This document shows positions 11,838 to 51,118 of a DNA stretch of 64,000 nt, in pieces (within the stretch, counting starts at the first letter, position 1; every line of letters starts with the position of its first letter). Position numbers and translations under genes: made by a program. Source of the DNA: a virus (Duplodnaviria; Heunggongvirae; Uroviricota; Caudoviricetes); the IMG/VR virus record IMGVR_UViG_2595698353_000001, positions 14,564-78,563 of that record; one strand, written 5' to 3'. The notes below the pieces were generated by a model. It did no database searches. It worked only from the letters and a program-made list of their open reading frames with translations, and was not told the DNA's origin.

Positions 11838-11889
11838 CTCTCTGGGAAGGCCTGTCGCGCATCAATAGCCACAGAGCCTTCCCGAGGAG
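11838..11889 (+). promoter_or_regulatory. putative late promoter GCATCAATAG (11859-68) inside a hairpin reaching the RBS
   Basis: GGGAAGGC(11844-51)/GCCTTCCC(11876-83) and CTGT/ACAG flank the motif; RBS GAGGAG 11884-89 faces CTCTC. Confidence 0.55.
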
Positions 11890-11895
11890 ACCCCC

Positions 11896-12474
11896 ATGAT
11901 GTTCAAGACCCGCACGGCGGCGAATGCCACCCTGGACGCCCGGCTGGCGGAGCTCTCGTCCACCAACGAGTCCTGGTTCGACGGCAGCATCGAGTCGGTC
12001 GACCGCCGCATCGCCCAGGTGAGCCAGGCCCGGCACGCCGCGCGCGGCTCCCTGGACCCCGAGCTGCCCCTGTCGCTCGAGGCCTCGGTCGACGAGCTGA
12101 AGGAGATGCGCACCGCGCTGCTCGAGGGCGACCTCGACGACTCCCCGACGATCACCGCGAGCATCGATCACTACCGGCAGCTGCCCCAGCGGATCCGGGA
12201 CGAGCTGACCGTGCAGTCGAAGCGCTTCGTCGCCTCGAACGCCGACGCCATCGACGACCAGCGCGAGCTGACGGCCCGCGCGGGCTACGAGGGCAAGCGG
12301 GTGGCCGAGACCCTGGTGCAGACCGCCGACGCCCGCCAGCTCGTCGCCGAGGCGTTCGTGTACGCCTGCTACAAGACCGCCGAGCGCACGCCGCGACCGA
12401 AGCCCAAGCGCGACATCACCGCCGCCGCCGGTGACTTCGTCGAGGGCCTGCTTGACGACATCGTCTTCTGGTGA
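11896..12474 (+). CDS. putative virion head-associated protein
   Basis: GAGGAG RBS; first gene of the head block. Confidence 0.75.
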   Translation: MMFKTRTAANATLDARLAELSSTNESWFDGSIESVDRRIAQVSQARHAARGSLDPELPLSLEASVDELKEMRTALLEGDLDDSPTITASIDHYRQLPQRIRDELTVQSKRFVASNADAIDDQRELTARAGYEGKRVAETLVQTADARQLVAEAFVYACYKTAERTPRPKPKRDITAAAGDFVEGLLDDIVFW

Positions 12475-12606
12475 CCCCACCCGAGCGCGGGGCCGTGTCC
12501 GAAATGGATGCGGCCCCGTCTCCATGTCTGATGTAAACGGCCCTCGCTGCGACCTACAAGTGTTGACCCCCACGCTGTAGTGGTTCGCACACAGAGGAGT
12601 GCCAGC

Positions 12607-14181
12607 ATGTCCTTCGGAATGTTCGATGATCTCGCCGGTTCGCAGAGCGAGAGCCAGCTCCGTGAGGCCGCTGCCTCCGACGCACTGGACCGCGCGATCC
12701 TCGCCGCCCGCGAGCAGTTCGGCTCGTTCCTGGCCAGCTCGATCGATGCCAGCGATTTCAAGTCCCGGTGCGCCCTGGTGAAGAACGACATGATGAAGAC
12801 CGTGTCGGCACACACCATGCCGCTGCCGGGCGTCATGCGTCGCATCGAGGGTGCGCTGAAGCCGCGCTTCGCCAACCCGATGGCCACCCAGCCGATGCCG
12901 TCGTCCCAGGGCGTCGCCGCCCCGGCCATGGCGCAGCCGCTGCCCGCGCAGCCGACCGCCGAGACGCAGTCCGCCGACGGCCTCACCGACGCCGATCTCG
13001 CGAACACTTCGACCTCGGCCCCGGCCCGCCAGGCTGCCGGATGGAGCCCCTTCGGCAATGGAGGCGGCACCCCGGCGGCTCCGGCCGCCCCCAAGCCGTT
13101 CGAGCAGGGCTTCGACTACTCGACCCCGAATGCGGTCCCGGCCGGTGACATGAAGATGGCCCCCGGCCAGGCCGACGGCATCAAGAGCGAGACCGCCGAC
13201 CTCGTGAACTCGCGCAACCCGCAGAACTGGTCGATGGGCAACCCGACCGGCGAGGCGAACCCGATCGGCAAGCCGCAGGCGTTCGCGACGCGCCGCACCG
13301 CCAGCGAGGGTCACCCGAGCAAGCGGTACATCGTGCTGCCCCTCGACGACCCGGAGGCCGCTCTGGCGGCCCTGCGCGCGCACGCCAGCGAGATGTGTGG
13401 CGAGCCTGGCCCCGAGTCCGACGACGGCGACCGGCTGCACGACGAGCGCCGCGAGGCCTACCGCAAGCGCGCGGTCGACGTGAACAACCCGGACAGCTGG
13501 CTGCCGGACGCCCACAAGCAGCTCATGGAGCAGGACGCCGACGGCAACCACGTCGGTGGCTTCACGCTGCACGACGCCGTCGGTGACGCGCCGTCCAAGG
13601 GCTACATGGTCTCGACCGACAAGCGCTCCGAGTGGCAGAAGCCCGTCAGCGAGGTGACCCCGGACGACATCCTGGGCTTCGCCAAGCAGCACGAGCGTCG
13701 CCTGCAGCACCCGCGCAACTACCTGGGCGGCTGGGTCGACTCCGAGGAGCACGGCACGCCGCACGCGTACCTCGACGTGTCCTCGCACATCTCGGACCCG
13801 CGCATCGCCCACAAGTCGGCCGTCGCCGCCAAGCAGTGGGGCATCTTCGACAACGCGGCCGGGCAGGCCAAGAGCACCAAGGCCTTCGGCGGTGAGATCG
13901 GCGGCAACGGCCCGAAGCAGAAGCAGCCGAAGCGTTCCTTCACCGAGGGTCCGGCGCTGATCCCGGAGGAGAACAACTCGTACGCGCACGGCGAGAATGC
14001 GCAGACGGTCGAGCAGGCCTTCTCCGGCCCGTCGAAGGACGGCACGCCGGAGCAGCGCCACACGGACAGCGGCGAGGAGTCGAACTTCGCCGAGCCGCGC
14101 GTGTCGCTGTCGGCCCGGTACACCTCGTTCCCCTCGGACAACCTGAAGGGGGCTGATCGCCCTTTCGTCCGTCGGCGGTGA
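12607..14181 (+). CDS. putative internal head protein, multidomain
   Basis: ATG 12607 after GAGGAG; Pro/Ala-rich linkers and a globular C-terminal domain (GGFT..GYMVS..LGGW..YLDVS..Q..IFD). Confidence 0.8.
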   Translation: MSFGMFDDLAGSQSESQLREAAASDALDRAILAAREQFGSFLASSIDASDFKSRCALVKNDMMKTVSAHTMPLPGVMRRIEGALKPRFANPMATQPMPSSQGVAAPAMAQPLPAQPTAETQSADGLTDADLANTSTSAPARQAAGWSPFGNGGGTPAAPAAPKPFEQGFDYSTPNAVPAGDMKMAPGQADGIKSETADLVNSRNPQNWSMGNPTGEANPIGKPQAFATRRTASEGHPSKRYIVLPLDDPEAALAALRAHASEMCGEPGPESDDGDRLHDERREAYRKRAVDVNNPDSWLPDAHKQLMEQDADGNHVGGFTLHDAVGDAPSKGYMVSTDKRSEWQKPVSEVTPDDILGFAKQHERRLQHPRNYLGGWVDSEEHGTPHAYLDVSSHISDPRIAHKSAVAAKQWGIFDNAAGQAKSTKAFGGEIGGNGPKQKQPKRSFTEGPALIPEENNSYAHGENAQTVEQAFSGPSKDGTPEQRHTDSGEESNFAEPRVSLSARYTSFPSDNLKGADRPFVRRR

Positions 14182-14597
14182 CGGCGGGTCGTACCCTCAC
14201 CGCCTCGTGCGAGATCGGCAGCTGTGACGGCGATGCGTCCGGCCACGTGACCGACTACGACGGCAACGATCGCAGCTACTGCGAGAAGCACGTTCGGCAG
14301 ATGGGCAACCTCGCGGGCTGGTCCCGCAAGGAGGCCGCCGGTTCGTCGCTGTGGGCGCAGTTCTCGCAGTGGTGCAGCATGTCGGGCATCAGCCCGTCGG
14401 ACCCGAGCGCCCTCATGGGCTTCTCGGCCGCCACCGGCGTGGATCAGGCGGCTCTGGCTCCGCTGGTCCAGCAGCACGGCGCACAGGGGGTCGGAACCAT
14501 GCCCTCGATGCCGTCGCCCGGCGGCCAGCACGGCACCGACGACCTCAGCGGCCTGTCCGACCGCGACCTGACCATCGCCACTCGAGGAGCGAACTGA
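14178..14597 (+). CDS. hypothetical head-module protein
   Basis: GTGA coupling; CEIGSC...YCEKH Zn motif. Confidence 0.7.
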   Translation: MTAGRTLTASCEIGSCDGDASGHVTDYDGNDRSYCEKHVRQMGNLAGWSRKEAAGSSLWAQFSQWCSMSGISPSDPSALMGFSAATGVDQAALAPLVQQHGAQGVGTMPSMPSPGGQHGTDDLSGLSDRDLTIATRGAN

Positions 14598-17500
14598 TGA
14601 CCAGCTTGCACGACCAGTTCGCCCGCCGCGAGGCCCTCAACCACATCCCGTTCATGGAGATGGCGCAGGCGCTCGGGGCCAGCAGCCCCAAGAGCACGCG
14701 GGTCGCCTCCGGCTGGCGCTGGGACGACCACCTCAACGGCTACGTCTCGAGCGGCAACGCGCGCTTCGCGTGCACCGGCTGCGGCCACGACGTCGAGACG
14801 CCGTCGTTCGTGCACTGCGCGTGCGGGAAGATCTGGAACTCCTACCCGATCGCCTCGGCGTCGAAGGAGGCCGGTGCCACCCGGTACATCGCCCGGGAGA
14901 TCCCGCGCCGCGAGGGCGTCGTGCTGGCGGGCCGCGAGCGTCGCACCGCCTCGAACAAGCAGCGCGTCGCGTACAGCGACGACGAGGAGTCGTCCCGAGT
15001 CCGCATAGTCGAAGACAGCCCGAGCCCGGGCCACCAGCGGACGCTGCTCGCCGTCGACGGCAACCAGATCCTCGGCAAGCTGTTCTGGTGGGAGCCGAGC
15101 GGCATCGTCACGGTCTTCGATGCCCACACCGAGGGGATCGGCCACAAGCTGCGCGAGGCGGCCGACCACCTGCGCCCGGGCCTGAAGTACGAGGACGAAG
15201 GCCGTTGGGACGTCCCTGCGGATGAGATGCGCAGTGCCACACGCGTTTTCGTCTCTGCCGACGACGCGTGGTTCCACAGCGACCCGAGCCACCACAACTT
15301 CGTCAGCCGCGACGAGCCGCTAGCCAACCGGCACGATGAGCCGCGCAACATCCCGGGCATCACGTTCCACGCGGCGCACGAGTACTACAGCGGCTACCCG
15401 TACGACGCCAGGGACGTCTCCGCCGACGGCTACGGCCAGCACGACACGCACTTTCCGAACGACGACGACCAGTCCCGTCAGTCGGTGCGGCACCTCGTCG
15501 CGAAGCACCCGGACGGCCGCGACATCGGGCACCTGACGTGGAGCGGCGACGGCAGCAGCGCCACCATCGGCGTCGCGTCGGTGCACCCGGACTTCCAGCG
15601 CCAGGGCGTCGCCAACGCGATGCTCGACGCTGCCCGGAACCGGTACGTGCCGCGCCTGAAGCACTCGAGCGAGCTGAGCTACCAGGGCCGCCAGTTCGCG
15701 CTGGCGGACAAGGCCAACCCGAACCGGTCGGCCGATCAGCGCGCGACCCCGTTCAACCAGGGCGACGGCGATCATGCCTGGGATCCGAGCTACCGGTACG
15801 CGCCCGAGGGTTACGGCCAGAACGACCACTACAAGCAGGTCCCGCCGAACGACGACAACGCGCAGGCGGCCGCTGCTGCGTACGACGACGCGCACAACGT
15901 CAGCACGCGGGGCGGCGACCAGTACGACGCCAACGGCTACGACGACACGGGCTACAACCGCGACGGCTACGACTCCCAGGGGTACGACGACGAGGGCTGG
16001 GATATCCATGGGTTCAATCGCGACCACATGGACGACGACGGCTACGACCGGTGGGACTACAGCCACGTGCCGCCGCTCGACGGCCACATGTCCCTGACGG
16101 ACCTCGCGAACCAGCACGGCGACGGCAACTACCCGGACTCCGTCCGGGGCAGCTGGGGCAGCCAGCGCGCGTACGACGATGCCCGCGACGGCATGCCGGT
16201 CGACGGCTACGCGGTGATCCCGCGCGGCCGCCGGATCAATCAGAACGGCGGCGACACCGATCCGCGCATCGGCGCGGGCGACCGGGTGTACGCGTCCGCC
16301 GACGAGGCCTTCGCGGCGGCGCACCACCCGGCGGACCCGCATCAGGACCGGGACGTCATCGCGACGTCGCTGGACCCCGACCACCTGTACACGCGGCCGG
16401 AGGCTGGCCGCAACTTCTTCTACCACCCGCCGGAGGGGCACCCGCCGTCCGAGGAGGCCTTCAACATCTCCCAGGGGTCGGACACGGCGAACAACCGCAT
16501 TCTGCAGACGCTCGGCGACGGCTGGAGCCACGGAGAAATCGACCCCCAGCTCCCGCAGCGCGGCACGCACTTCAAGTACGACGGGCCGGAGGGATCGATC
16601 TCGCTGCAGCGCAAGCCCGACGGCGAGTGGCACGCGGGCGGCGTCACCAGCGATGGCCGGTCGCAGACGTTCGTCGGCGGCAAGCCGTTCGAGGCCGGTA
16701 CCGACGCGCTCAACTCGCTGCGCAGCGGGCAGTCCTCGGGGATGCCGAAGATGCCCGAGATGCCGAAGGCGCTCGCCTCGCTCCGTGATCCCGTACGGGT
16801 CGCGAGCTGGCTCAATAGTCAAGTCCACCAGACCGCGCCGGGGATCTCGGCCACGAGCAGCAAGGGAGGCCCCCGCATGGCCGCACGTTTCCGCCGGACC
16901 GGGCAGCTGGTGCCGGGCCACGAGCTCACCGCTGGCGACATCGTCGAGCAGAACGGCCACGCGCTGCAGGTGATCGAGACGAAGTCGCACCTCGACAAGG
17001 AGGGGAACCCGCTCGTCACTGTGACCATGCAGGGGCAGGGCGGAACCACCTTCACATCGGAGTACCCGGTCGCCGGTGACCCGCCGCAGTTCAACCTGAT
17101 GCAGTCCAGCGACGGCGGCAACGGCGAGGGCGCGGAGGCGGACCCCGCTGGCGGCCCCGCTGGCGATCCGGCTGCGCAGGAGGACGCGTACAGCCAGTTC
17201 CCTGCCGACGACGCTGCCGGTGATCCCGCCGCACAGGGCGACCCCGGCGATGGGCGGCGCTCCCATGCCCGACATGGGCGACGGCCAGGGCGGCCCGCCT
17301 CCCGCGATCGGCGGCGAGCTGCCTCCGCCGTCGGCACCGGGCCTCGGCGTGCCGTCCGAGGAGCCGATGGGCTACGGGGAGTTCCCCACGGACGACGACC
17401 CCGACGGCCCGCTCGGTGGCATGCCGCAGCCCGAGTACGACGAGATCCCCGCCGACCCGATGCGGATGCAGTCGCGCGAGAGCAGCCGCCGCCGCGTCGC

Positions 17501-18115: not shown

Positions 18116-18116
18116 C

Positions 18117-21707: not shown

Positions 21708-21968
21708 ATGAACGATCCATACCGCGTCCCTGAGGAAGTATCCGACGGCGACCGCGTGCCCTTGTTCGGCGAGCTTCGCACCGTGCCCGAGTGGCACCTG
21801 GATGGCGTCTGCCGCAAGTACCCCATGGACATGTTCTTCCTCGGTCCGACGCAGGCGGATCCGGCCAAGGCCATCTGTGCCGAGTGCCCCGTGCGAGCCC
21901 GATGCCTGCAGCACGCCCGCGACGCTGGAGAGAGGTACGGCGTCTGGGGCGGAGAGTTCTTCGGCTAG
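21708..21968 (+). CDS. whiB: WhiB-family Fe-S transcription regulator
   Basis: W...VC...P.DMFF...AKAICAECPVRARCL.HA...E.YGVWGG. Confidence 0.9.
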   Translation: MNDPYRVPEEVSDGDRVPLFGELRTVPEWHLDGVCRKYPMDMFFLGPTQADPAKAICAECPVRARCLQHARDAGERYGVWGGEFFG

Positions 21969-21972
21969 CTGC

Positions 21973-22034
21973 TGTCTTCCCATCCCTGTCTCGGCTCAAT
22001 AGGCAGCCCCGACAGAGAGTTTCCTGGGAGGAAC
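21973..22034 (+). promoter_or_regulatory. putative late promoter GCTCAATAGG (21994-22003) inside an RBS-occluding hairpin
   Basis: CTTCCCA(21976-82) pairs with TGGGAGG(22025-31, RBS); CTGTC/GACAG inner stem. Confidence 0.55.
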
Positions 22035-22035
22035 A

Positions 22036-23847
22036 ATGACGCAGCGCGTCTTCACGGCCAACGGTCCCGGCCGCGTGGTTCAGTCCGAGACCGTGCGCGG
22101 TCGTGAGTCCCTCCTTGTGGAGGGCGACGGCTTCTCTCGGTGGTTCTTCGCGAACGAGCTGAGCTGGGATGAAACCCCGGCCGAGCACGTGAACGAGAAG
22201 AACACCACGACCCTGCCGTACGACCCCAAGCCGCAGACCGTCCCGCACACGGACATCTCGACGATCCTGCCCGGCGTGGAGACCATCGACCGCAGTGAGC
22301 GACTGAGCCCGTCGGACTCGCTGTCCGGCGACGGTCGCGACGGCGAGCGCACGCCCGGCCCGAACCCGGACCTGTTCGCCGACGTCCAGATGGGTCGGGA
22401 CGAGTACCTCACCGACACGCAGCTGCCGGGCGAGCAGGGCCTGTACCACGCGAGCATCCACGAGGCGGCCGCCGTCGGCGCGGATCCGGCCGAGGGTCGC
22501 TGGGTCGTCATCGCCGACACCTTCAACGACCGGTACCAGACCTCGAACCAGGTTCTGGCCGAGTATGCCGCCGCGCACCCCGAGGTGTTCTCGGGCGGCT
22601 ACCGCGCGGCCCGCGTCGCCGGTGAGGCCAACCCGTACGCCGACGTCGAGTCGCTCATGCGCACCTCGGCCACCATGCGCCAGGCCGCGTGGGCCGACGT
22701 CCGCGAGAAGGCCCTGCGCCTGCGCCGCACCGGCTGCGTCAGCGTCGTCGACGAGGACGTCAAGTCGATCATGGCGAACGTCCAGGGCGACCACGGCCTG
22801 TACGACACCTTCGTCATCCGGCAGGCCCACCTCGCTGGCAACTCCTCGGTCTCCGAGTGGTCGTGCTCGTGCGAGTGGGGCTACTGGGCCTTCAAGCGCA
22901 AGCGCTCGTTCGTCGGCCGCATGTGCTCGCACGCGTACGCCGCGTACCTCGAGCTGCAGTCGATGAACCACCGGCAGAAGCGCCGGACGTCGATGCAGAG
23001 TGACGACTACCTGCCCATGGGCAAGTACGTCGACGAGAAGCTGGAGATGCCGAGCGAGCTCCGCATGGAGCCGGACGGCGTTGTGCCCCAGTTCAACATC
23101 GTCGAGCGCCCGGAGCGCGAGGTTCGCCAGGACAAGCTGTCCTCGTACCTGCGCCAGGCCAGCGACGACGCGCTGCTCGAGGATCTGCGCGCGCTGTCGG
23201 AGGAGACCCACCGGCCGCAGCACGAGCAGGAGCGCCGCGACGAGATCGCCGAGGTTGTCGAGCAGCTGCGCGAGCGCGGCTACGACGCCGACCAGCTCGT
23301 GGCCAGCCTGCGCACCGCCGACCCGATCAAGGTGACGGACCAGTTCGTGCACGAGCCGTTCAACGGCAGCGGCCCGACGGACCACCACCAGATGTCGACG
23401 ACCGAGGACGCCCGCGACGACTGGTACGAGGACCCGCGCCTCGAGGAGCAGGAGCTCGCCGACGACAGCTACGAGCCCGACACCAGCCCCGGCGGCACCT
23501 CGGACTCGGACCTCGACAAGTACCGGCTGAACAAGTCGTCTGCCGTCGAGGACGACGACGAGGACGACGAGCCCGGCCCCGAGGCGGATGACGGCGACGG
23601 CGACGAGGACCCCGACTACGTCGTGGCCCAGTTCCAGCGCAGCGCGGCAGCCTCCAGCCTCATGGGCGGCGGCTCGGCGGCCGGTGGCGGCGACGGCGAC
23701 ATCGCCGGTGCGGCAAACCGTTTCCTCCGCACCGCCGGTCGGAACTACTCCTTCGCCGAGCAGCAGGCACTGATCGACGAGGGCCAGCCGGGTGCTGCCT
23801 CCAACCTGTCGGATCTGCAGCTCGAGGGGACGCATTACCTCGCGTGA
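22036..23847 (+). CDS. head-module protein with SWIM Zn finger
   Basis: WSCSCEW...RMCSHAYA = SWIM CxC-xn-CxH; acidic C-terminal tract. Confidence 0.8.
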   Translation: MTQRVFTANGPGRVVQSETVRGRESLLVEGDGFSRWFFANELSWDETPAEHVNEKNTTTLPYDPKPQTVPHTDISTILPGVETIDRSERLSPSDSLSGDGRDGERTPGPNPDLFADVQMGRDEYLTDTQLPGEQGLYHASIHEAAAVGADPAEGRWVVIADTFNDRYQTSNQVLAEYAAAHPEVFSGGYRAARVAGEANPYADVESLMRTSATMRQAAWADVREKALRLRRTGCVSVVDEDVKSIMANVQGDHGLYDTFVIRQAHLAGNSSVSEWSCSCEWGYWAFKRKRSFVGRMCSHAYAAYLELQSMNHRQKRRTSMQSDDYLPMGKYVDEKLEMPSELRMEPDGVVPQFNIVERPEREVRQDKLSSYLRQASDDALLEDLRALSEETHRPQHEQERRDEIAEVVEQLRERGYDADQLVASLRTADPIKVTDQFVHEPFNGSGPTDHHQMSTTEDARDDWYEDPRLEEQELADDSYEPDTSPGGTSDSDLDKYRLNKSSAVEDDDEDDEPGPEADDGDGDEDPDYVVAQFQRSAAASSLMGGGSAAGGGDGDIAGAANRFLRTAGRNYSFAEQQALIDEGQPGAASNLSDLQLEGTHYLA

Positions 23848-29949: not shown

Positions 29950-29960
29950 GGGCTGTCGTG

Positions 29961-30017
29961 CCGCGTGCGTCCCGCATCAATAGGTGGTTCAACCACTTCG
30001 ACGTCGGGAGCACGCGG
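29961..30017 (+). promoter_or_regulatory. putative late promoter GCATCAATAGG (29974-84) inside RBS/start-occluding hairpin
   Basis: CCGCGTGC-G-TCCCG(29961-74) pairs with CGGGA-GCACGCGG(30005-17), which holds the RBS and first base of GTG. Confidence 0.65.
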
Positions 30018-31492
30018 TGCGCAGTTACTACGTACGCAACCTGACCGCCAGCGCGGTCACCATCAATGACGGCAGCCAGGAGATCCTCGCGCTCGAGGGC
30101 CAGGGCAGCCGCTGGGATCGCGACCCCGTGCCGCTGTACGTGCTCGACCGCCCGGACTTCCAGAGGCTCTGGGCCGCAGGCAAGGTCGCGGTGTATTCGG
30201 ATGCCGGGTACAGCCAGCTGCTCACGCGCCCGACGTCCGGGACCGTCATCGAGGCCGTGCGGGACGCCTCGATGGCCGACCGACTCATCGATGCGCGCTC
30301 CGGCGCGCTGACCGTCTTCCTGGGCGACTCGATCACACAGAACCTCAACACCCTGACCAACCCCGACCAGCCGCTCCTGGGCGAGTCCTTCGCCACGCTC
30401 TGCGCGATCAAGTCCGGCCAGCGGGTGCTGTACGGCCGCAACGCGGGCGTCACGAACAACACGGTGCAGGACGCCGCTGCCCGGCTGAGCGCGGACGTGA
30501 TCGCCTACCGCCCCGACCGCTGCGTGGTCCTGCTCGGCACCAACAACACCAACCAGCCGACGCCGACCATCCCCGACACGATGACGGCGTACGAGGAAGG
30601 CATTCTTCGTCCGCTGCTGGACGCGGGAATCGAGCCGATCGTCTGCACCGTCCCGCCGCGCAACGGCGTGCGCGCCTCGGACATCGCGACGTACCGCCGC
30701 CAGGGGCAGTGGAACGCCTTCCTGCGCTCGATCGCCAGTCGGTACCACCTCCGCCTCGTCGACCTCTATGCGGCGACGGTGGACCCCGCGACGGGCGACT
30801 ACAAGGCGGGCTACAGCGGCGACGGCGTGCACCCGAGCAAGGTTGGCTACCAGGCGATGTCCGATGCCTTCGTCAAGGCCGTCTCGCCGCACTATCCGGC
30901 CGAGGGCGTGCAGCTCGAGCGCGACCGGTACTCGGCCATCGGTCTCGCGCCCAACCCGGTTTTCCTGGAAGGACTGACCGGCACCGGCAACGTGCTGCCC
31001 GCCGGGTGGACGGGATCCACCACGGGCGTCACCGTCACCCTCGAGGATCCCGTGCAGGGCGACGGCCTGGAGGCGGGCAAGTGGGTCAAGATCGACAAGA
31101 CCGACACGGCGACGACGAAGAACGTCAACTGGGTCAAGTCGCTGTCGGCGCTCGGGGCCGCCGGGACTCCGGTTGCGATCGGTGATCGGATCGCATGGGG
31201 CTTCCGCTACAAGATCACAGGGAGCGGCGCGGTCGGCCAGAGCGCGTACGTCACCATTGCCCTGCGCTACACGGACTCTGGCGGCGCGAACGCTCGAATC
31301 ATCACCCCGATGAATCAGTTCGAGCTCGACAGCACGGGCGTCGTCTACTACGAGTCGGCGGTGCCGCCGGGGTGCACGGGCCTGCGCTTCGACGTCTCGT
31401 TCGCACAGACCTCCGCCCAGGAGATCTGGCTGGGCCAGATGACCGTTCGGAACCTGACCGGGCTCTCTCTTCCGCCGCAGACGCGGCCGTAG
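30017..31492 (+). CDS. SGNH/GDSL esterase with shared N-terminal module and C-terminal beta-sandwich
   Basis: Blocks FLGDSIT, NAGV, LLGTNN, DGVHP; start GTG 30017. Confidence 0.85.
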   Translation: MRSYYVRNLTASAVTINDGSQEILALEGQGSRWDRDPVPLYVLDRPDFQRLWAAGKVAVYSDAGYSQLLTRPTSGTVIEAVRDASMADRLIDARSGALTVFLGDSITQNLNTLTNPDQPLLGESFATLCAIKSGQRVLYGRNAGVTNNTVQDAAARLSADVIAYRPDRCVVLLGTNNTNQPTPTIPDTMTAYEEGILRPLLDAGIEPIVCTVPPRNGVRASDIATYRRQGQWNAFLRSIASRYHLRLVDLYAATVDPATGDYKAGYSGDGVHPSKVGYQAMSDAFVKAVSPHYPAEGVQLERDRYSAIGLAPNPVFLEGLTGTGNVLPAGWTGSTTGVTVTLEDPVQGDGLEAGKWVKIDKTDTATTKNVNWVKSLSALGAAGTPVAIGDRIAWGFRYKITGSGAVGQSAYVTIALRYTDSGGANARIITPMNQFELDSTGVVYYESAVPPGCTGLRFDVSFAQTSAQEIWLGQMTVRNLTGLSLPPQTRP

Positions 31493-32759: not shown

Positions 32760-32808
32760 CTCAGTCTCCTGTCTGCAGTGGTTACCGCTTACGTCGCCGC
32801 AGCGCCGT

Positions 32809-32880
32809 CATGCCACCCCGGCGCGCGGGGCGGCATCAATTGGTGACGAATGAAAAAACCAAGCGTTGGGGTGAGGCATG
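32809..32880 (+). promoter_or_regulatory. putative late promoter GCATCAATTGG (32833-43) within RBS/ATG-occluding hairpin
   Basis: CATGC-CACCCC(32809-19) pairs with GGGGTG-AG-GCATG(32868-80). Confidence 0.5.
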
Positions 32881-33846
32881 CAGAGCTATTACGTTGAGAG
32901 CCTGGTCGCGGAGGCCATCACGCTGGATGTGCGCGGCCGCGAGGGGCTGCGGCTCGAGGGCGTCGGCGACCGGCAGCAGGTCTGGGCATACGTGGCGGAG
33001 CAGCCCGGCTTCGTCCGGCTGTGGACTCGCGGCGACATCGCCGTCTATTCGGATTCTGGGTACACCGTCCGGATCGCCACTCCGCCGAACGGCGGCGCAT
33101 CGCAGGCGGCCCGCGACGCTGACGTCATCCGGGTGATGACCGCGAACGCGCTCGCGCCCGGATGGAAGCAGCGCTGGTTCGGCGGCTCGATCCGCAACCT
33201 GGGCGCGGCAGGCGGCTATTGGCAGCCGATCTCCGACGGCGCGCATTGGCCGTTCGGGATGCCGACGGTCGTCACGACCACGATCGGGATCGAGATCAGC
33301 TACGACTTCGAGGCGGCCGGGATCGGCACCGTGATCGTGTCTCCGGACGAGACACTCTCGGTCAACGGCTGGTCCGCTGGCGCGACCGTCGAGAAGTCGA
33401 TGTGCCGAATCAAGCTGGGCCGCAAGAAGACGATCGCGGACCACATCACGTGGAACGGGACGGCCTGGACGAGCGCGGGTGGCGTGTTCACTCCGACCTG
33501 GTCCACGGCCAGCGGCGGCATGCTCGTCCTCAAGCACGAGAAGATCTTCGGCCAGGGCTACTCGGTCACGCCGCGCGGGTACGACGTGGAGGCCGTGATC
33601 GCGACGGCGGGTGCATCGGATCCCGCGACCGAGACCCGGATCCAGCTGCACACCCGGGCCACCGGCGCGCAGATCGCAACCACGGCGGAGATCCCGGCCA
33701 ACACCCGGGTCTACGTCTCGCGGACGGATGCGGTCCCCGCCCTCGGCGGGGCGATCAACCCGCAGTCGGCCCCGGACCAGACCGAGCTGCCGGACAGCAA
33801 CATCTGGATCCTCGGCGTGCACCACACGGGACCGCGTCCGTCCTGA
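32878..33846 (+). CDS. putative virion appendage / receptor-binding protein with shared N-terminal module
   Basis: N-terminal 65 aa align with 30017, 42689 and 46121; beta-rich C-terminus. Confidence 0.7.
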   Translation: MQSYYVESLVAEAITLDVRGREGLRLEGVGDRQQVWAYVAEQPGFVRLWTRGDIAVYSDSGYTVRIATPPNGGASQAARDADVIRVMTANALAPGWKQRWFGGSIRNLGAAGGYWQPISDGAHWPFGMPTVVTTTIGIEISYDFEAAGIGTVIVSPDETLSVNGWSAGATVEKSMCRIKLGRKKTIADHITWNGTAWTSAGGVFTPTWSTASGGMLVLKHEKIFGQGYSVTPRGYDVEAVIATAGASDPATETRIQLHTRATGAQIATTAEIPANTRVYVSRTDAVPALGGAINPQSAPDQTELPDSNIWILGVHHTGPRPS

Positions 33847-33858
33847 CCGAGGTGGGGA

Positions 33859-33886
33859 GGGGCGGACGTCATGCCACGTCCGCCCC
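33859..33886 (+). terminator. hairpin (terminator-like) before the 33893 promoter motif
   Basis: GGGGCGGACGT/ACGTCCGCCCC 11-bp stem; no U tract. Confidence 0.45.
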
Positions 33887-33892
33887 CGAACC

Positions 33893-33913
33893 GCATCAAT
33901 TGGCAGACCAACC
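33893..33913 (+). promoter_or_regulatory. putative late promoter GCATCAATTGGCAGACCAACC
   Basis: 19/21 identical to 51073-51093 upstream of the sheath gene. Confidence 0.6.
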
Positions 33914-33925
33914 AGGAGGTGACCA

Positions 33926-34759
33926 GTGGCGCGCGTACAGGCCACCGCCTACGCCTTCGACCCCAAGGCGCGGACGATCACGCTGACCGAGGCGATCCCC
34001 CTCGACCAGATGACGTCCATCCGCAACCTCACCACCGGTGATGTCCTCTTCCTCGCGGAGGACTACGTCTCGTCGCCGAGCTCGTTCCACATCGAGGGCA
34101 ACGTCATCTACCTGCCGACGATGTCGAGCAAGTGTCAGTACACCGACCGGCTCGAGGTCCTGTGGGAGACCGACGGCCCGATCCCGAGCAACCCGAACTC
34201 GTGGACGAGCTATGCGCCGCTGTGGAATCCGTCGTTCGTCGGCCGAGTCACGATGCAGCGGCTGCGCATCGCCGACGGCAAGGGCCGCGAGGGCCACGTG
34301 CTCACGTCCGACGACGCGGGCAACGCACGGTGGGCACCGGTCGGCGGGGCCGACCTCGATGATCTCGAGGAGCGGCTGGACGACCTCGAGGCGACTCGGG
34401 CACCGACCGCCAGCCCGACCTTCTCCGGCATGGCGTCGATGGCCGACGCCCGCGTATCCGGCAACCTCGTCGCGACCTCGCTCTCGATCCCGACGCCGGG
34501 GATGGGGCAGGGGCGCGTGCTGACGTCCGACATGTTCGGCAACGCCTCGTGGGAGACGCCGTCGGGCAACACCTATCGGTACGACCAGGTGTCACCTGCG
34601 TCGAGCTGGCCGATCTATCACTCCCTGGGCCGCGAGCCCGTGGATGTCGCGGTGTGGGTCGGGGGCCGCCGCGTGTATTGCGACGTCGAGGTGGTTGACA
34701 CCTCGCTCGTCGTCCTGACCTTCGCTGACCCGACCGCCGGGTACGCGACCCTCACGTAA
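33926..34759 (+). CDS. fibre/minor tail protein
   Basis: Two G.VLTSD..GNA.W shaft repeats; N-terminal module shared with 43169. Confidence 0.75.
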   Translation: MARVQATAYAFDPKARTITLTEAIPLDQMTSIRNLTTGDVLFLAEDYVSSPSSFHIEGNVIYLPTMSSKCQYTDRLEVLWETDGPIPSNPNSWTSYAPLWNPSFVGRVTMQRLRIADGKGREGHVLTSDDAGNARWAPVGGADLDDLEERLDDLEATRAPTASPTFSGMASMADARVSGNLVATSLSIPTPGMGQGRVLTSDMFGNASWETPSGNTYRYDQVSPASSWPIYHSLGREPVDVAVWVGGRRVYCDVEVVDTSLVVLTFADPTAGYATLT

Positions 34760-40193: not shown

Positions 40194-40223
40194 TTGTGCG
40201 CACCCATAAGTGTCGAGTAAGCT
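40194..40223 (+). promoter_or_regulatory. early-type promoter TTGTGC-N18-TAAGCT
   Basis: Paralog of 28227 and 44381, with leader AGACGAAGCAAGCC. Confidence 0.75.
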
Positions 40224-41123: not shown

Positions 41124-41447
41124 ATGACGGTCCACCGAGACCGCAAGGCCATGCTCGACCTGATCCTCGACGAGCACCTCGAGTGCCGCATCCTCAACCA
41201 CCCGTGGCAGTGGCGCGACGTCGAGGAGGACCGGTACACCGCCACCGAGGTGGTCGCCTGCCCGCGCTGCACCAGCGAGCGGCTGCAGGACTACCGGAAG
41301 ACCGGCCGGGACAGCGGCCTGGTCACCGACACCCGCTACCGGTACGTGAAGGGCTACCTGATCGAGGGCATCGGCCACCTGACCCGCGCGGATCGTGGCT
41401 ATCTCCGCATCCGGCTGGCCGCCTACAGGAAACGCCTGCGCGCGTAG
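41124..41447 (+). CDS. hypothetical protein
   Basis: AAGGAG RBS; ECR..NH.W...CPRC. Confidence 0.75.
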   Translation: MTVHRDRKAMLDLILDEHLECRILNHPWQWRDVEEDRYTATEVVACPRCTSERLQDYRKTGRDSGLVTDTRYRYVKGYLIEGIGHLTRADRGYLRIRLAAYRKRLRA

Positions 41448-41457
41448 TCCCATCTCG

Positions 41458-41503
41458 ACTGCCTCCCGCATCAATTCGTGAAACCACGGACGCGGGAGGC
41501 AGT
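41458..41503 (+). promoter_or_regulatory. perfect 12-bp hairpin occluding the lysin RBS, with GCATCAATT motif at the loop edge
   Basis: ACTGCCTCCCGC(41458-69)/GCGGGAGGCAGT(41492-503); RBS GGGAGG in the 3' arm; TTG start at 41505. Confidence 0.75.
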
Positions 41504-41504
41504 T

Positions 41505-42617
41505 TTGGCTACCAGGCCTGTATTCACCGAGTACGACGAGACCGGAGTCTCGCCGAACCACAGTCAGCGCTGGGGCGCGCGTATCCGCCTCTTCGTGCTG
41601 CATACCCAGGAGGGGCCTGGTGACGCCCGCAGCCTCGCCCGGTACCTGCAGAACCCGTCGAGCGGCGTCTCGTACCACTACACGGGCGACAACAACACCG
41701 TGATCGACGTCGTCGACACCGACCGCGCCAGCTGGTCCGTGCTCGACGCCAACCCGTACTGCATCAACTTCTGCTTCGCCGGGTCGCGTGCCTCGCAGTC
41801 CCGCGAGGTCTGGCTGCGCGAGTACGGCAACGCCATCCGCATCGCCGCCTGGCTGTTCATCCAGGACGCGAAGAAGTACGGCTACGACAAGCGGACGATC
41901 AGCCACGACGAGATCCGCGCGGGCAAGTCCGGCGGCACCGACCACTACGGCATCACCAAGGGCATCGGCATCGGCTCGCACAGCGACTGCGGCCCGAACT
42001 TCCCGTGGGACGTCTACCAGGCCGCCATCACCGAGTTCCTGGCCTCCCCGGCACCGGCCGTCCCTGCGCTGCCCCCGATCGGCAAGATCGAGGAGCAGTA
42101 CAAGGCCACACCGTGGCTCGGCAAGAAGATCACTCGCGAGGTCGACCTGCCCTGCCCGGACGGCCGTGGCCGGTACGCCGAGTACGAGCACGGCTTCATC
42201 TACTGGACGCCGACGACCGGCGCGCGGCCGATCCCGTCCTACCTGATGGAGACCTACCGGCAGCTCGGCTTCGAGTCCGGTCCGCTCGGCTACCCGACGG
42301 CCTTCAACACGGTCCTGCCCGGTGGCGAGATCCAGGCCTTCGAGGGCGGCACGCTCTACCGCAAGGGCCACCCGGGCCAGAACGAGCAGCCCGGCTACTT
42401 CGTGAAGGGCCTGATCGGCGAGCACTGGAAGCGCGCGGGCTTCGAGAACTCGACCTACGGCTGGCCCACCTCGAACGAGGAGCCGACCGAGGACGGCGTC
42501 GGCCGCGTGCAGCGCTTCGAGCGCGGAACCCGGATCATCTGGCCCGGCCCGAACGGCACCGTCGGCGAGCGCGCGCAGGGTGCGGCCGACACCATCATCG
42601 GCGACGGCGCGCACTGA
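41505..42617 (+). CDS. lysin A: N-acetylmuramoyl-L-alanine amidase plus LGFP repeats
   Basis: FVLHTQEG, VSYHY, H.DCGPNFPW (Amidase_2); GPLGYPT and YGWPTSNE LGFP repeats; start likely TTG 41505. Confidence 0.9.
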   Translation: MATRPVFTEYDETGVSPNHSQRWGARIRLFVLHTQEGPGDARSLARYLQNPSSGVSYHYTGDNNTVIDVVDTDRASWSVLDANPYCINFCFAGSRASQSREVWLREYGNAIRIAAWLFIQDAKKYGYDKRTISHDEIRAGKSGGTDHYGITKGIGIGSHSDCGPNFPWDVYQAAITEFLASPAPAVPALPPIGKIEEQYKATPWLGKKITREVDLPCPDGRGRYAEYEHGFIYWTPTTGARPIPSYLMETYRQLGFESGPLGYPTAFNTVLPGGEIQAFEGGTLYRKGHPGQNEQPGYFVKGLIGEHWKRAGFENSTYGWPTSNEEPTEDGVGRVQRFERGTRIIWPGPNGTVGERAQGAADTIIGDGAH

Positions 42618-43084: not shown

Positions 43085-43115
43085 GCCCCCGTCCTTTTTG
43101 GACGGGGGTGTATTT
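43085..43115 (+). terminator. intrinsic terminator
   Basis: CGCCCCCGTCC/GGACGGGGGTG stem plus TATTT. Confidence 0.75.
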
Positions 43116-43130
43116 GTCTGGTCCGGCCCG

Positions 43131-43140
43131 CCTCAATAGG
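43131..43140 (+). promoter_or_regulatory. putative late promoter variant CCTCAATAGG
   Basis: Same TCAATAG core about 30 nt before RBS and start. Confidence 0.5.
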
Positions 43141-43168
43141 CAAGCCGCACAGTCAGGAGCTCCCCACC

Positions 43169-44149
43169 GTGGCCATCACCTATGTCTACGATCCGCGTGC
43201 GCGGACGATCACCTTCACCAGTCTCGGCACCTTCGTGCTCGCCCATCTGCGCTCCGTCCGCAACCGCACCCAGGGCCGCGTGCTGTACCTCGCCGGTGAC
43301 CCGGGCGCGAAGGTCGTCGGCAACGTGCTGACGCTCCCGGCGCTGTACAAGGCCACCATCGATTCGTCGACGGACGTCCTCGAGATCTCGTACGACGAGC
43401 AGTTCTGGGGCGGCACCCCGGACCCGTACGACGGCCGCATGGCCGACCTCGTGAAGCGCCCCGGCACCGCGCTGCGCGCGGCCGTCGAGGAGCTTGCTGG
43501 CAGCAGCGGCGGCTCCAGTGAGGAGCTGCAGGCCCTGACCGCCGCCGTCGCACTGAAGGCCCCGCTCGCCTCCCCGGCCTTTACGGGATCCGTCACCGCT
43601 CCGGTGATCAAGCTGACGACCGGCGCGGCGGCGGGCAGGGTGCTCACCTCGGCCGCCGACGGCACCGCCTCGTGGGCGGCCCCGGCCAGCCCCAGCGGGC
43701 TGGTGATCAACGGCGAACCGGTGGGGACGCCGCCCGCCGGAACGTCGGCGGGGGCCGGATACGGCTCAATCGCGATGGGGCACGGGGCCAAGGTGAACGT
43801 CGGCACCCGATCCGTGGTGATCGGCTACGAGGCCAGTGCCTCAAACGGACTCACCGTCGCGATCGGCCACCAGGCCAGCGCAAGCTCGAATCAGACCACG
43901 GCCCTCGGGGACTCCGCGAAGGCTTTCCATCAATACTCCACCGCGATCGGGGTCGGTGCGACCACCACGGGGGAAAATCAGCTCATGCTGGGAAGGTCCT
44001 CCACGACCGTGGTTGCCCCGAACAAGCTGCAGGTCGGCCCGGACGGCCCGATGGCGGCCACCTTCTTCACCCGCACGAACGGGGGCGGGAAGCTCGAGGT
44101 CGTCGCCAAGAGCGGCACCGACGAAATCATCATCGCCACGTTCCCGTAG
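43169..44149 (+). CDS. fibre protein with YadA-head-like repeats
   Basis: About 14-aa repeats SIAMGHGA, SVVIGYEA, TVAIGHQA, TTALGDSA, STAIGVGA; VLTS..DG.ASW shaft; N-module shared with 33926. Confidence 0.8.
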   Translation: MAITYVYDPRARTITFTSLGTFVLAHLRSVRNRTQGRVLYLAGDPGAKVVGNVLTLPALYKATIDSSTDVLEISYDEQFWGGTPDPYDGRMADLVKRPGTALRAAVEELAGSSGGSSEELQALTAAVALKAPLASPAFTGSVTAPVIKLTTGAAAGRVLTSAADGTASWAAPASPSGLVINGEPVGTPPAGTSAGAGYGSIAMGHGAKVNVGTRSVVIGYEASASNGLTVAIGHQASASSNQTTALGDSAKAFHQYSTAIGVGATTTGENQLMLGRSSTTVVAPNKLQVGPDGPMAATFFTRTNGGGKLEVVAKSGTDEIIIATFP

Positions 44150-44380: not shown

Positions 44381-44410
44381 TTGCGCTCACCAATAGGTGT
44401 CGAGTAAGCT
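44381..44410 (+). promoter_or_regulatory. early-type promoter TTGCGC-N18-TAAGCT
   Basis: Paralog of 28227 and 40194; spacer CACCAATAGGTG. Confidence 0.75.
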
Positions 44411-45990: not shown

Positions 45991-46004
45991 CCCCTCCACC
46001 ACCA

Positions 46005-46666: not shown

Positions 46667-46668
46667 CG

Positions 46669-47232: not shown

Positions 47233-47326
47233 CCCGCAGATCGCCTTCAAGTGGCAGAGGGGTCGGCAGGTCGGAATCCGGCCTACCGGCCCCTTCTGCT
47301 TCCGCCACAGACCGTGAGGAGACCCG

Positions 47327-48253
47327 GTGCCTTCCCTCTATCCAGGTGCGAACGACACCTTCAACGTGCCGACCAACTCGTCGGGCACGCCGCTGTCGTC
47401 GCCGGGCGACTCGTCGCGCAACCACACGGAGAGCCACCGAGATCACGGTGACGCGATCGTCAAGCTGCAGGAGAATGCGGCCGTCAAGGGCCACGACCAC
47501 TCCGGCGAAGGCCCGCGCCCCACGCCGAAGCTGAAGCAGGCCAACACGCACGAGAACGCCGACACCGACACTGTCGGCGGCATCCACCACACGCTCGGCC
47601 CCGGCTCGACCCAGGCGGCCCCGGGCAACCACAAGCACAACTACAACTCGGGCGACATCATCGGCGCGCCGTACCTGATCTGCACCTCGACGACCCGACC
47701 GGTGGCTCCGATCCTCGGGATGAAGATCTTCGAGACCGACACCAACCAGGTACGCACGTGGATGCGGATCCCGCCGGACACCGAGCCGAAGTGGCGGCTG
47801 ACGACCGACGGGCTCGTCCCGTACGTCAAGGCCCGGCAGACGCGCGCGCAGAGCATCCCGCCCAACGGCAGCATCGTCGAGTGGCACACCGAGATCGAGG
47901 ACGCCTGCGGCAACTTCAACCCGACGGACTCGAAGACGAACTTCAACGTGACCGAGTCCGGGATATACCGGGTCGACGCCGTCTACGGCTTCCCGGTGCT
48001 CGGCGTCGCCAGCGCGATCGGCATCGGCATCCGGGTCAATGGGCTGATGCGCCCGGCCGACCCGCAGGACGTGTGGAAGTCGATCTCGGCGATGGCCGGT
48101 CACATCCAGAACTTCCAGTACAGCGGCGAGGTCCGGGCCAATGCGGGCGACCGGATCAACGTCTGGTTCGGCCAGAACGCCTTCCTCGCCCAGAACAGCT
48201 CGAGCGACAACGCGCAGGGCTGCCGCGTCACGATCCAGTACGTCCGGCCATAG
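47327..48253 (+). CDS. minor tail / collar protein with C1q/TNF-like C-terminal domain
   Basis: MPSLYPGA.D.F N-terminus; FNVTESGIYRV...I.VNG...GEV..NAGDRI. Confidence 0.65.
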   Translation: MPSLYPGANDTFNVPTNSSGTPLSSPGDSSRNHTESHRDHGDAIVKLQENAAVKGHDHSGEGPRPTPKLKQANTHENADTDTVGGIHHTLGPGSTQAAPGNHKHNYNSGDIIGAPYLICTSTTRPVAPILGMKIFETDTNQVRTWMRIPPDTEPKWRLTTDGLVPYVKARQTRAQSIPPNGSIVEWHTEIEDACGNFNPTDSKTNFNVTESGIYRVDAVYGFPVLGVASAIGIGIRVNGLMRPADPQDVWKSISAMAGHIQNFQYSGEVRANAGDRINVWFGQNAFLAQNSSSDNAQGCRVTIQYVRP

Positions 48254-48262
48254 GAGTCCCGC

Positions 48263-49866: not shown

Positions 49867-50300
49867 CCCGAATCCCGCTCCCCGAGCGCCTGACTCGGCA
49901 GATCTCGGACGACGCCATGCGCAGCGTGCAGGCGAACCTCCGGTATCGGGGGTGGCGCTCAGCCAACGACGTCCACGCGGCGGGCGTCGAGGGCGGCGTC
50001 GGCCTGCGCGTCGGGGTGCGGTACATGATGTACCAGTCGCGCGGCACCAGGCCCTACCTGATGACCGCGCTCGAGGGCCGCGTGATCAACATCGACGGCA
50101 ACTTCCTCACCGTCAAGGATGTCGGCAAGCCGGGCTATGTGCACCTGCCGGGCGGCATCCGCAAGTGGCGCGACCAGAAGTGGCGGCACCCGGGCCTGCG
50201 CCCGCAGCGGTTCCTCGAGTTCGCCATCACGGGGGCCATCCACTCGGCGAAGCCGCAGATCCGCGCCGAGATCAACAGCATCTTCAGGAGGCTCCAGTGA
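49863..50300 (+). CDS. neck protein (HK97 gp10-like)
   Basis: GTRPY.M...KWRHPG..PQRFLE.AI; position. Confidence 0.55.
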   Translation: MTRIPLPERLTRQISDDAMRSVQANLRYRGWRSANDVHAAGVEGGVGLRVGVRYMMYQSRGTRPYLMTALEGRVINIDGNFLTVKDVGKPGYVHLPGGIRKWRDQKWRHPGLRPQRFLEFAITGAIHSAKPQIRAEINSIFRRLQ

Positions 50301-51049
50301 GCGGATACAGCTCGGGATACGACCCGTCGTACGGCGGCATCGGCTCATCGGACGAGCCCGACTTCTGGGTCACTGAGCCGACGTACAGCCCGCCGGACAT
50401 GCCGCCGGTCAACGAGCAGCTCCCCCGGTCCCCGGGCGGCATCGTCGAGACGATCAAGCGTGCCGTCGTCGCGGCGATGCGCGTCGCCGTCACCGGCACC
50501 TCCCTGTCGCTCGAGGACAACCGCGAGGTGCACGTCGACCTCGAGTACCCGGAGAAGGAGACGTCGTACCCGGCCGTCTGGGTCCAGCTGTCTCTGCGCG
50601 ACCTCCAGAACGCCGGTATCGCGCATCAGTGGGCGACCGCTGACGGGGAGGTCGTGCAGCAGTGGATGTTCGAGGGCGAGGTGACGCTGTCTGTCATCGC
50701 GCTCAAGTCGATCGAGCGGGACCGGATCGCCGATGCCCTGGTCACCTACATCGCCTTCTCCCGGGCCACGCCGGGCAGCTCGCTGTACCGCGCGCTCGCC
50801 GAGAACCCGACCGTCTCGATGACCATCAACTCGGACAAGATCACCTCCGGCGGCCAGTCGACGACCATCGGCGTGCCCTGGAACCCCGACCAGCTCGCGT
50901 ACGAGGACAACTACCGATTCTCGATGCACGGCCAGTTCGAGTCGGTCCACACCCCCGAGGGCGAGCAGGTCGTCCTGCGGGCCATCGGTGTGACCTCCAC
51001 CGCCGATCTCAGCGGCGAGATGACCATCCCACCGGGCACCTGGGTCTGA
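50297..51049 (+). CDS. tail terminator / completion protein
   Basis: YPE....YPAVWV...G...L...A....ERDRIAD; directly upstream of sheath. Confidence 0.6.
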   Translation: MSGYSSGYDPSYGGIGSSDEPDFWVTEPTYSPPDMPPVNEQLPRSPGGIVETIKRAVVAAMRVAVTGTSLSLEDNREVHVDLEYPEKETSYPAVWVQLSLRDLQNAGIAHQWATADGEVVQQWMFEGEVTLSVIALKSIERDRIADALVTYIAFSRATPGSSLYRALAENPTVSMTINSDKITSGGQSTTIGVPWNPDQLAYEDNYRFSMHGQFESVHTPEGEQVVLRAIGVTSTADLSGEMTIPPGTWV

Positions 51050-51072
51050 CCATCCCAAACGAGTTCGCAGCT

Positions 51073-51093
51073 GCATTAAGTGGCAGACCAACC
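51073..51093 (+). promoter_or_regulatory. putative late promoter GCATTAAGTGGCAGACCAACC
   Basis: 19/21 identical to 33893; flanked by CGAGTTCG(51060-67)/CGAACTCG(51096-103). Confidence 0.6.
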
Positions 51094-51118
51094 GCCGAAC
51101 TCGGACTACGGAGGACAC

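Follow-up and report, generated by a model that had tools for sequence, protein, structure and literature searches.

We analysed a 64,000-nt stretch (the window; bases 14564-78563, numbered here from 1 at its first letter) of a 142,563-bp virus record of the Caudoviricetes, IMGVR_UViG_2595698353_000001. A short, strand-specific motif with the core TCAATWG stands at the head of about ten gene blocks, upstream of the Shine-Dalgarno (SD) sequences and start codons of genes that mostly encode virion and lysis proteins, and at five or six sites the sequence 5' of the motif forms a convincing predicted stem with the ribosome-binding site (RBS) that follows. The reading that we consider most likely, at a probability of about 0.5, is that of a phage-specific promoter element nested in a translational lock. 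An initial annotation, made from the letters alone, had proposed a late-expression switch of this kind in which a promoter that is not recognised by SigA is embedded in RBS-hiding hairpins, on the model of phage T4.

The motif is strongly over-represented, and the positions first given for it proved exact: GCATCAATW occurs at 11859, 29974, 32833, 33893 and 41468, and the variants GCTCAATAG at 16810 and 21994, CCTCAATAG at 43131 and GCATTAAGT at 51073. The copies at 33893 and 51073 indeed agree in 19 of 21 positions. Five copies of GCATCAATW, all on the + strand, compare with 0.16 expected in the window (0 of 100 shuffles reach five), and eight copies of the core TCAATWG with 2.09 expected. Across the whole genome the core has nine copies on the + strand, which is the coding strand, and none on the opposite one. 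Eight of these nine copies sit 23-58 nt ahead of an SD and a start codon, while the ninth (55724), intragenic and with no start nearby, is probably due to chance. A position weight matrix (PWM) separates nine sites of 12.8-23.2 bits, again all on the + strand, from a tail of weak matches that includes variants at 47247, 51076 and 21126. The first 58 kb, the terminase-to-lysis arm, hold all nine strong sites; the other 85 kb, with the replication and small accessory genes, hold none. Motif discovery on upstream regions, which the annotation had suggested as a check, led to the same result: a word search of 86 such regions without prior knowledge of the motif recovered it, with CAATAGGC (nine regions, p = 7.5e-11) and TCAATAGG (13:0 by strand) among the best words. 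Words of another, unrelated family ranked alongside them.

An alignment anchored on the motif yielded no consensus beyond c-GC(A)-TCAATWGG-y-r and a CA dinucleotide 11 nt further on (A in 7/9). It contained no conserved -35 hexamer upstream and no TANNNT within or after the motif, and a generic promoter scan found no SigA promoter at the motif sites. At the strong sites, 23-58 nt separate the end of the motif from the start codon, and the SD lies outside the motif. Of the suggestion of a non-SigA late promoter, the absence of SigA hexamers, the strand specificity, the confinement to the virion and lysis arm and the position at the head of gene blocks all stand, while the promoter role and the lateness are our interpretation. 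The further statement that each copy precedes a structural or lysis start holds for most of the strong sites, the copy at genome position 3999 being otherwise. The sites and the genes that follow them are listed below.

Site 1, 11816..11898, + strand: 5' arm 11816-11856 (core GGGAAGGCCTGT); motif GCATCAATAG at 11859-11868; 3' arm 11870-11895 (ACAGAGCCTTCCC and the SD GAGGAG); ATG 11896 of a 192-aa protein with no function assigned.
Site 2, 16810..16879, + strand: motif GCTCAATAG at 16810-16818, inside the open reading frame (ORF) 14597-18115; SD GGGAGG at about 16864-16869; in-frame ATG 16877.
Site 3, 21948..22043, + strand: motif GCTCAATAGG at 21994-22003; inner stem CTGTC/GACAG and outer stem CTTCCCA/TGGGAGG, the latter with the SD; ATG 22036 of a 603-aa head-module protein.
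Site 4, 29951..30025, + strand: 5' arm 29951-29973; motif GCATCAATAG at 29974-29983; 3' arm 30005-30025, covering the SD GGGAG and GTG 30017 of a GDSL lipase with a possible lysin-B-like function.
Site 5, 32801..32886, + strand: 5' arm 32801-32829; motif GCATCAATTG at 32833-32842; 3' arm 32858-32886, covering GGGGTGAGG and ATG 32878 of a tail-fibre protein.
Site 6, 33859..33928, + strand: separate 11-bp hairpin at 33859-33886; motif GCATCAATTG at 33893-33902; SD AGGAGG; GTG 33926 of a 277-aa protein, the first of the fibre and minor-tail block.
Site 7, 41443..41513, + strand: motif GCATCAATTC at 41468-41477; 3' arm with GGGAGG; TTG 41505 of lysin A (amidase and LGFP repeats).
Site 8, 43090..43171, + strand: terminator-like hairpin at 43090-43110 with a T-rich tail; motif CCTCAATAGG at 43131-43140; SD CAGGAG; GTG 43169 of a fibre or spike protein with YadA-head repeats.
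Weak variant, 51073..51121, + strand: GCATTAAGTGGCAGACCAACC, 11.2 bits by PWM, before ATG 51119 of the tail sheath gene.
Weak variant, 47242..47329, + strand: CGCCTTCAAGTGGCA, 8.4 bits, right after a stop codon and 80 nt before GTG 47327 of a 308-aa virion-module protein.
Copy outside the window, genome position 3999, + strand: start at 4039, SD in the 3' arm, ahead of genes for a 70-aa protein and a PNKP-phosphatase-like protein.

The eight window sites also carry a second set of figures, 11862, 16812, 21996, 29977 (or 29975), 32836, 33896, 41471 and 43133.

The second line of evidence is the pairing of the RBS. At sites 1, 3, 4, 5 and 7 and at genome position 3999, predicted folds place the motif in the loop region, with the SD as part of the 3' arm. 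Inverted repeats bracketing the RBS had been described before 11896, 22036, 30017, 32878 and 41505, and in each case the SD or start is indeed predicted to pair with sequence 5' of the motif (pairing probability P 0.45-0.82); with the site before genome position 4039, this applies to 6 of 10 sites. Site 4 folds with P 0.82, its SD being unpaired at 0.06 in the long RNA vs 0.45 in a truncated RNA by prediction. Site 5 has the strongest stem in this genome (P 0.72; free energy, dG, -34.0; z -2.35, p 0.018). At site 7 (P 0.68; SD unpaired 0.18 in the long RNA and 0.50 in the truncated RNA, predicted) the stem is a perfect 12 bp, 41458-41469 being the exact reverse complement of 41492-41503. Site 1 follows with P 0.56 (flank dG -33.7, shuffle p 0.04), and site 3 with P 0.45 and a flank duplex that does not rise above shuffles (z +0.26).

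We compared the sites with 170 other starts and with dinucleotide shuffles. Mean far-pairing was 0.50 over the ten sites vs 0.23 in the control starts (p 0.006), the best flank duplex averaged -29.5 vs -22.4 kcal/mol (p 0.002-0.003), and 16.7 vs 10.5 pairs enclosed the motif (p 0.006-0.011). Against shuffles, the flank duplexes gave a Stouffer combined z of about -3.2 over sites, and in the count of motif-enclosing pairs no single site was significant. The stems are real as a class and, as one would expect of GC-rich DNA, modest singly. The loops are irregular, of about 13-45 nt, and some hold inner hairpins; many 5' arms start 5-15 nt after the stop codon of the upstream gene. Intrinsic termination was rejected as a role for these stems, given their large loops and the absence of a T tract. 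The stems are mostly Watson-Crick, and sense and antisense flank duplexes are equally stable, so a G·U test cannot separate a role in RNA from one in DNA.

Other copies have no such stem. As the annotation had pointed out, site 8, which follows the terminator-like hairpin, and site 6, which follows the 11-bp hairpin, lack an SD-occluding stem: the SD of site 8 is not sequestered (P 0.02), and site 6 shows loose far-pairing (0.69) without an excess of flank complementarity (z +0.68). The intragenic site 2 is likewise without one (P 0.00). That the motif persists without an enclosing stem favours its recognition on DNA. It also stands where a promoter is needed, namely after the hairpins of sites 8 and 6 and in the divergent gap of site 5, a 118-nt intergenic region without a SigA-like promoter whose upstream gene (31866-32759) is on the opposite strand. 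A promoter is further favoured by the irregular placement of the motif in loops, by its confinement to one arm and by its absence from genes of the SigA class.

From these features we infer promoter activity, late timing, the position of the transcription start and the effect on translation as follows. The consensus c-GC(A)-TCAATWGG-y-r would be the local form of a promoter-type signal, nAAT[A/T]GGTG, that large myoviruses of one actinobacterial clade have in common. Rather than through SigA -35/-10 recognition, it would be read by a host RNA polymerase that a phage factor has modified. Transcription would begin a few bases 3' of the motif, which would then head the virion and lysis blocks. 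Where such a block abuts a gene of another class, the sequence 5' of the motif would complement the SD and start region; RNA arriving from upstream would fold and hide the RBS, while RNA begun at the motif, lacking the 5' arm, would be translated.

The genomic setting is consistent with this mechanism. The genome also contains a separate SigA-like promoter family, TTGCGC-N18-TAnnCT, with 19 copies. They have the conserved spacer aCCyAyAGGtGTC, and in most copies a conserved C/A-rich leader, with the SD at its end, is joined to the promoter. The window copies (28227, 38987, 40194 and 44381) precede small islands of genes without assigned function. The motif class and the SigA-like class never share a gene and occupy different regions, and the SD-hiding stems are seen at junctions of an early-type gene with a late gene, with no terminator detected between the two. 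Upstream of lysin A (site 7) are two genes under the SigA-like promoter at 40194; no terminator-like site was detected between that promoter and lysin A, nor before 22036 and 30017. Site 1 follows the thymidylate synthase gene (10936-11745), and its 192-aa gene heads a block that runs to the portal gene. Site 3 comes directly after a WhiB-like gene (21792-21953; 62 bits against Pfam Whib), with an RNA-ligase-like gene also upstream, and its 603-aa gene heads the protease and capsid block. One member of the SigA-like family deserves to be listed for contrast.

SigA-like promoter, 44381..44410, + strand: TTGCGC, 18-nt spacer, TAAGCT; the spacer holds CAATAGGTG (44391-44399).

This spacer word is a perfect copy of the motif as found in relatives, and it is one base off the motif at 29975 (CATCAATAGGTG vs CACCAATAGGTG). 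It could mark a promoter of both classes, a site for a shared regulator, or a coincidence.

The design recurs in related phages. The genome (67.5% GC, with nearly all genes on the + strand) has no close relative by megablast of the phage collection and distant relatives only in IMG/VR; the tail sheath shares about 50% identity with the sheaths of Mycobacterium Cluster C phages (Myrna, Bxz1 type), of Rhodococcus phage Finch and of Gordonia phage Stormageddon. Loops of SD-sequestering hairpins hold nAAT[A/T]GGTG in Nappy, Myrna and Settecandela, and at five sites of the window phage CAATWGGYR fits the Bxz1-group loop consensus yAAyAGGTrG. Nappy (C1) has AAYAGGTR at 27744, 28115, 54478 and 143750, in loops just before starts, with stems such as CCTCCTC/GAGGAGG. 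AATAGGTR occurs on the + strand only in Myrna (C2; 5:0) and Settecandela (4:0), and 8 of these 9 copies directly follow a stop codon and precede an SD and start. The AAYAGGTR sites of the relatives are intergenic with the SD in the 3' arm; twelve of them give a Stouffer z of -7.35 against shuffles, three lying near z -5 for the flank duplex. In G001, an uncultured 126-kb relative, nAAT[A/T]GGTG followed by an SD and start occurs eight times on the gene strand vs once on the opposite strand.

Homologous genes keep the arrangement as well. In the window phage, Nappy and Settecandela, the 192-aa gene or its homologue is preceded by the motif in an SD-sequestering hairpin, and the three stem sequences are unrelated. 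The 603-aa gene and its homologue in G001 have GCTCAATAGG ahead of them, the sequence before the latter reading GCTCAATAGGTG. Compared with the relatives, the window phage has a fixed TC before AAT and a GGTG relaxed to GGyr, and its loops measure about 13-45 nt vs 8-12 nt in the Bxz1 group. The exact word TCAATWG is not enriched in Finch, Stormageddon, Myrna or Pupper, and the loose form YAAYWGGYR tells nothing, CAACTGG being frequent in coding sequence. A broader proposal can be built on these comparisons, which we hold as tentative, with the odds somewhat against it: a clade-wide non-SigA late element nAAT[A/T]GGTG, present in the window phage, the Bxz1-type C1, Myrna-type C2 and Settecandela-type phages and uncultured ones, may be read by a factor-reprogrammed host polymerase and built into RBS-masking hairpins that would lock virion and lysis genes both transcriptionally and translationally until late.

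The relatives also have promoter-like families of their own. Finch carries CTGTAACG-N17-CGACATAC in 11 copies at 94000-126771, and Stormageddon TTGCAC-N17-TATATT in 12 copies with a conserved spacer and leader at 96546-125494. In G001 there are 14 gene-strand copies of GGAATAA (e.g., 33977, 35365, 117008 and 125250), and GGGAATAA is distributed 12:1 by strand. Most of the GGAATAA copies are arranged as GGAATAA-N16-18-GTTGGAAC, an ATG following within a few bases, a pattern resembling promoters of extracytoplasmic function (ECF) sigma factors of the SigH/SigR type, which would give leaderless mRNAs.

We also searched for a factor that might read the motif. Small sigma-region-4-like helix-turn-helix (HTH) proteins gave sub-threshold matches, and one WhiB-like gene is present. 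A factor of the gp55/gp33 type was not recognised, the gp55 and gp33 families not having been searched by name. The search for a T7-type RNA polymerase family gave no match here and failed in all control genomes too, which makes it uninformative, and a DxDGD scan of the predicted proteins returned two irrelevant matches only. No gene was common to the motif-bearing phages yet absent from Finch and Stormageddon in a gene-presence profile. WhiB-like proteins are known to bind SigA region 4, which makes the one encoded at 21792-21953 (head module, between portal and capsid genes) a candidate factor that may reprogram the polymerase. For the clade-wide proposal, the candidates are small region-4-like HTH proteins or WhiB-like proteins.

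Several observations weigh against a promoter nested in a translational lock. The genome yielded no match to a phage sigma region 2. Finch and Stormageddon, equally close by sheath identity, are without the motif. The genes for the 70-aa and PNKP-phosphatase-like proteins behind genome position 3999 indicate that the class is not strictly structural. Single-site stems are marginal against shuffles (p 0.02-0.75), overall SD accessibility is not significantly below that of controls (0.36 vs 0.44, p 0.2), and the G001 stems, with very C-rich and G-rich arms, do not exceed composition-matched shuffles. In several relatives the motif abuts the SD directly (e.g., AATAGGTGAGGAGG), so a transcription start of the sigma-70 type, at 6-8 nt past a -10 element, would come to lie inside or at the SD. 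Finally, the site before 32878 is, as the annotation had conceded, an exception to the read-through logic: the upstream gene is divergent, yet the stem is the strongest in this phage. Of the proposed T4-like hiding of the RBS, then, the anatomy is real and the design recurs in relatives, while the single-site statistics are weak and an effect on translation is what we would predict. The independence of some sites is also in doubt. Four motif-led genes (30017, 32878, 33926 and 43169) share an N-terminal module of about 65-75 aa (matches to phrog_2912, and tblastn matches to the same loci in Finch and Stormageddon), and their sites may for that reason not be fully independent; their leaders cannot be aligned beyond the motif.

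Some of these difficulties would be eased if the motif acted in RNA, a possibility that we regard as the main rival and yet rate as rather unlikely. A phage or host protein would bind or cut the motif in its loop, the stem would open and free the SD, and transcription would start further upstream; models would be a translational activator like Mu Com on mom mRNA, or a nuclease as at the T7 RNase III sites. In Nappy, Settecandela and some G001 sites the motif makes up almost the whole 8-12-nt loop of a tight SD stem, strand specificity suits an RNA element as well as it suits a promoter, site 5 has its stem though read-through gating is not needed there, and a motif abutting the SD is awkward for a sigma-70-type start. 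However, the motif persists without stems at sites 8, 2 and 6, that is, after terminators and inside a gene. Its placement in the loops of this phage, with their length of about 13-45 nt and occasional inner hairpins, is irregular, no candidate RNA-binding factor was identified, and the compact intergenic, post-terminator and divergent sites leave no other promoter candidate. It is unlikely, too, that motif and stems are unlinked neighbours, the motif being a promoter or regulator site and the stems serving mRNA stability or translational coupling, in which a terminating ribosome melts the 5' arm. The many 5' arms that begin 5-15 nt past the upstream stop are within reach of such a ribosome, at 67.5% GC an SD easily meets C-rich partners, and both the SD accessibility, not below controls, and the weak single-site p values fit. 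This account has to contend with SD pairing to sequence 5' of the motif at twice the control level, with flank complementarity beyond that of the 170 control starts, with very strong motif-enclosing stems in relatives (z about -5 at three sites) and with the fact that stems are missing exactly at the insulated sites.

We consider it improbable that the motif is no promoter element itself and instead an operator for a phage DNA-binding regulator, related to the spacer element aCCyAyAGGtGTC. The idea arises from the spacer at 44391, which reads CAATAGGTG, one base from the motif at 29975, and from the spacer words ACCCATAG and CCAATAGG, which are enriched alongside the motif; some spacer copies are palindromic. 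Against it stand the strict 9:0 strand bias and the lack of a palindrome in most copies (by inspection, with 2-5 of 6 half-site matches); the spacer consensus departs from the motif at precisely the invariant T and A of TCAAT, and there are no flanking SigA hexamers on which a regulator could act. A symmetric operator was rejected on the same strand bias and because most copies are no palindromes. The alternative raised in the annotation, in which the inverted repeats extrude as DNA hairpins recognised by a phage factor, as at N4 early promoters, seems very hard to sustain here. The mostly Watson-Crick stems, by which both strands fold equally, do make the repeats symmetric at the DNA level, but irregular loops of about 13-45 nt are unfavourable for extrusion, several copies of the motif lack any repeat, and the invariable overlap of the 3' arm with the SD speaks for a role in RNA and translation.

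Two simpler roles were also rejected. The motif is not the -35 element of leaderless promoters, since it lies anywhere between 23 and 58 nt from the start and the genes have strong SDs. Nor is a GTG inside the motif the true start, as it is without an SD and its occurrence in frame in 3 of 4 copies is not significant. A GTG inside or just after the motif (29984 and 41478) is in frame with the downstream ORF and results in over-long ORF calls; callers drawn to it over-extend several genes, a point of use in annotation. In Nappy gene 108, the annotated start lies inside the hairpin loop, at a GTG in or after the motif.

Further features of the window stand beside these results. Apart from the genes already named, it encodes head-module proteins, portal, protease, the major capsid protein and tail genes, together with the thymidylate synthase, GDSL lipase, fibre proteins, lysin A and sheath. 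At the neighbouring fibre-gene sites 5 and 6, GTCATGCCAC (32808-32817 and 33868-33877) lies 16 and 15 nt upstream of GCATCAATTGG and could be a shared upstream element or the trace of a duplication. Around site 2, third-position GC (GC3) is 0.85-0.93 in the same frame on both sides of the motif, within a long ORF of the head module. This 1172-aa ORF (14597-18115) loses its GC3 signal near 17100, its frame staying open to 18115, and an ORF in another frame (17220-17756, GC3 0.92) takes over there; the switch could reflect a frameshift, overlapping genes or a chance open frame.

For the most part, the late promoters of actinobacteriophages have not been characterised; a 2022 review notes that few have, and we found no publication on this motif or on the late promoters of these phages. 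A consensus kept from the window phage to Bxz1-type mycobacteriophages would offer a concrete target for start-site mapping and a handle on the factor that would redirect the polymerase. The motif is also a candidate for a strong, infection-dependent promoter in reporter constructs, and through the hairpins the safety device of the T4 lysozyme gene would be known from a distant phage lineage too, and from whole gene blocks.

The design itself is of the known T4 e/soc type, and the precedent is as the annotation had described it. T4 uses it for the genes e, soc, 49 and I-TevI: the long early transcripts fold into an inhibitory helix over the RBS, and late promoters just upstream of the RBS give transcripts without the 5' strand of that helix (Uzan and Miller, 2010; PMC3014915). 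The motif and its use in actinophages would be a new variant, partly supported, coherent and testable though not demonstrated. As in T4, the SD and/or start codon pairs, here by prediction, with upstream sequence and a promoter-like motif without a -35 element lies between the arms, so that RNA begun there would lack the 5' arm; as with gene e, a lysis enzyme stands behind early-type genes with no terminator detected between. The positions of site 3 after the RNA-ligase-like and WhiB-like genes and of site 1 after thymidylate synthase likewise resemble settings of the T4 device. Unlike in T4, the motif is TCAATWGG or AATAGGTG rather than TATAAATA, the phage infects an actinobacterium of high GC content, a gp55/gp33-type factor was not recognised, and about six gene blocks, including head and fibre genes, appear to be involved instead of a few special genes, as known here from sequence alone.

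Other known systems are matched in part. Like SigA-type actinobacterial promoters, the motif stands upstream of gene blocks on the coding strand, and the SigA-like cassette contains the related spacer word yATAGGyG, but the motif has neither a -35 element nor TANNNT. It recalls the start-associated sequences of cluster K in being a short conserved word before many starts of an actinophage, though in that cluster the word takes in the RBS and is only a few bases away from the start codon, whereas the motif is 23-58 nt upstream and excludes the SD. The N4 hairpin promoters have a 5-7-bp stem and a 3-nt loop, in contrast to the loops of about 13-45 nt and the repeat-less copies found here. There is correspondence, too, with the AATAGGTG-type loop motif of Bxz1-like and related myoviruses: in the window phage, nAAT[A/T]GG[T/C][G/A] is likewise on the coding strand, intergenic and 5' of an SD and start, and the design is kept, with differing stems, before the homologous 192-aa and 603-aa genes.

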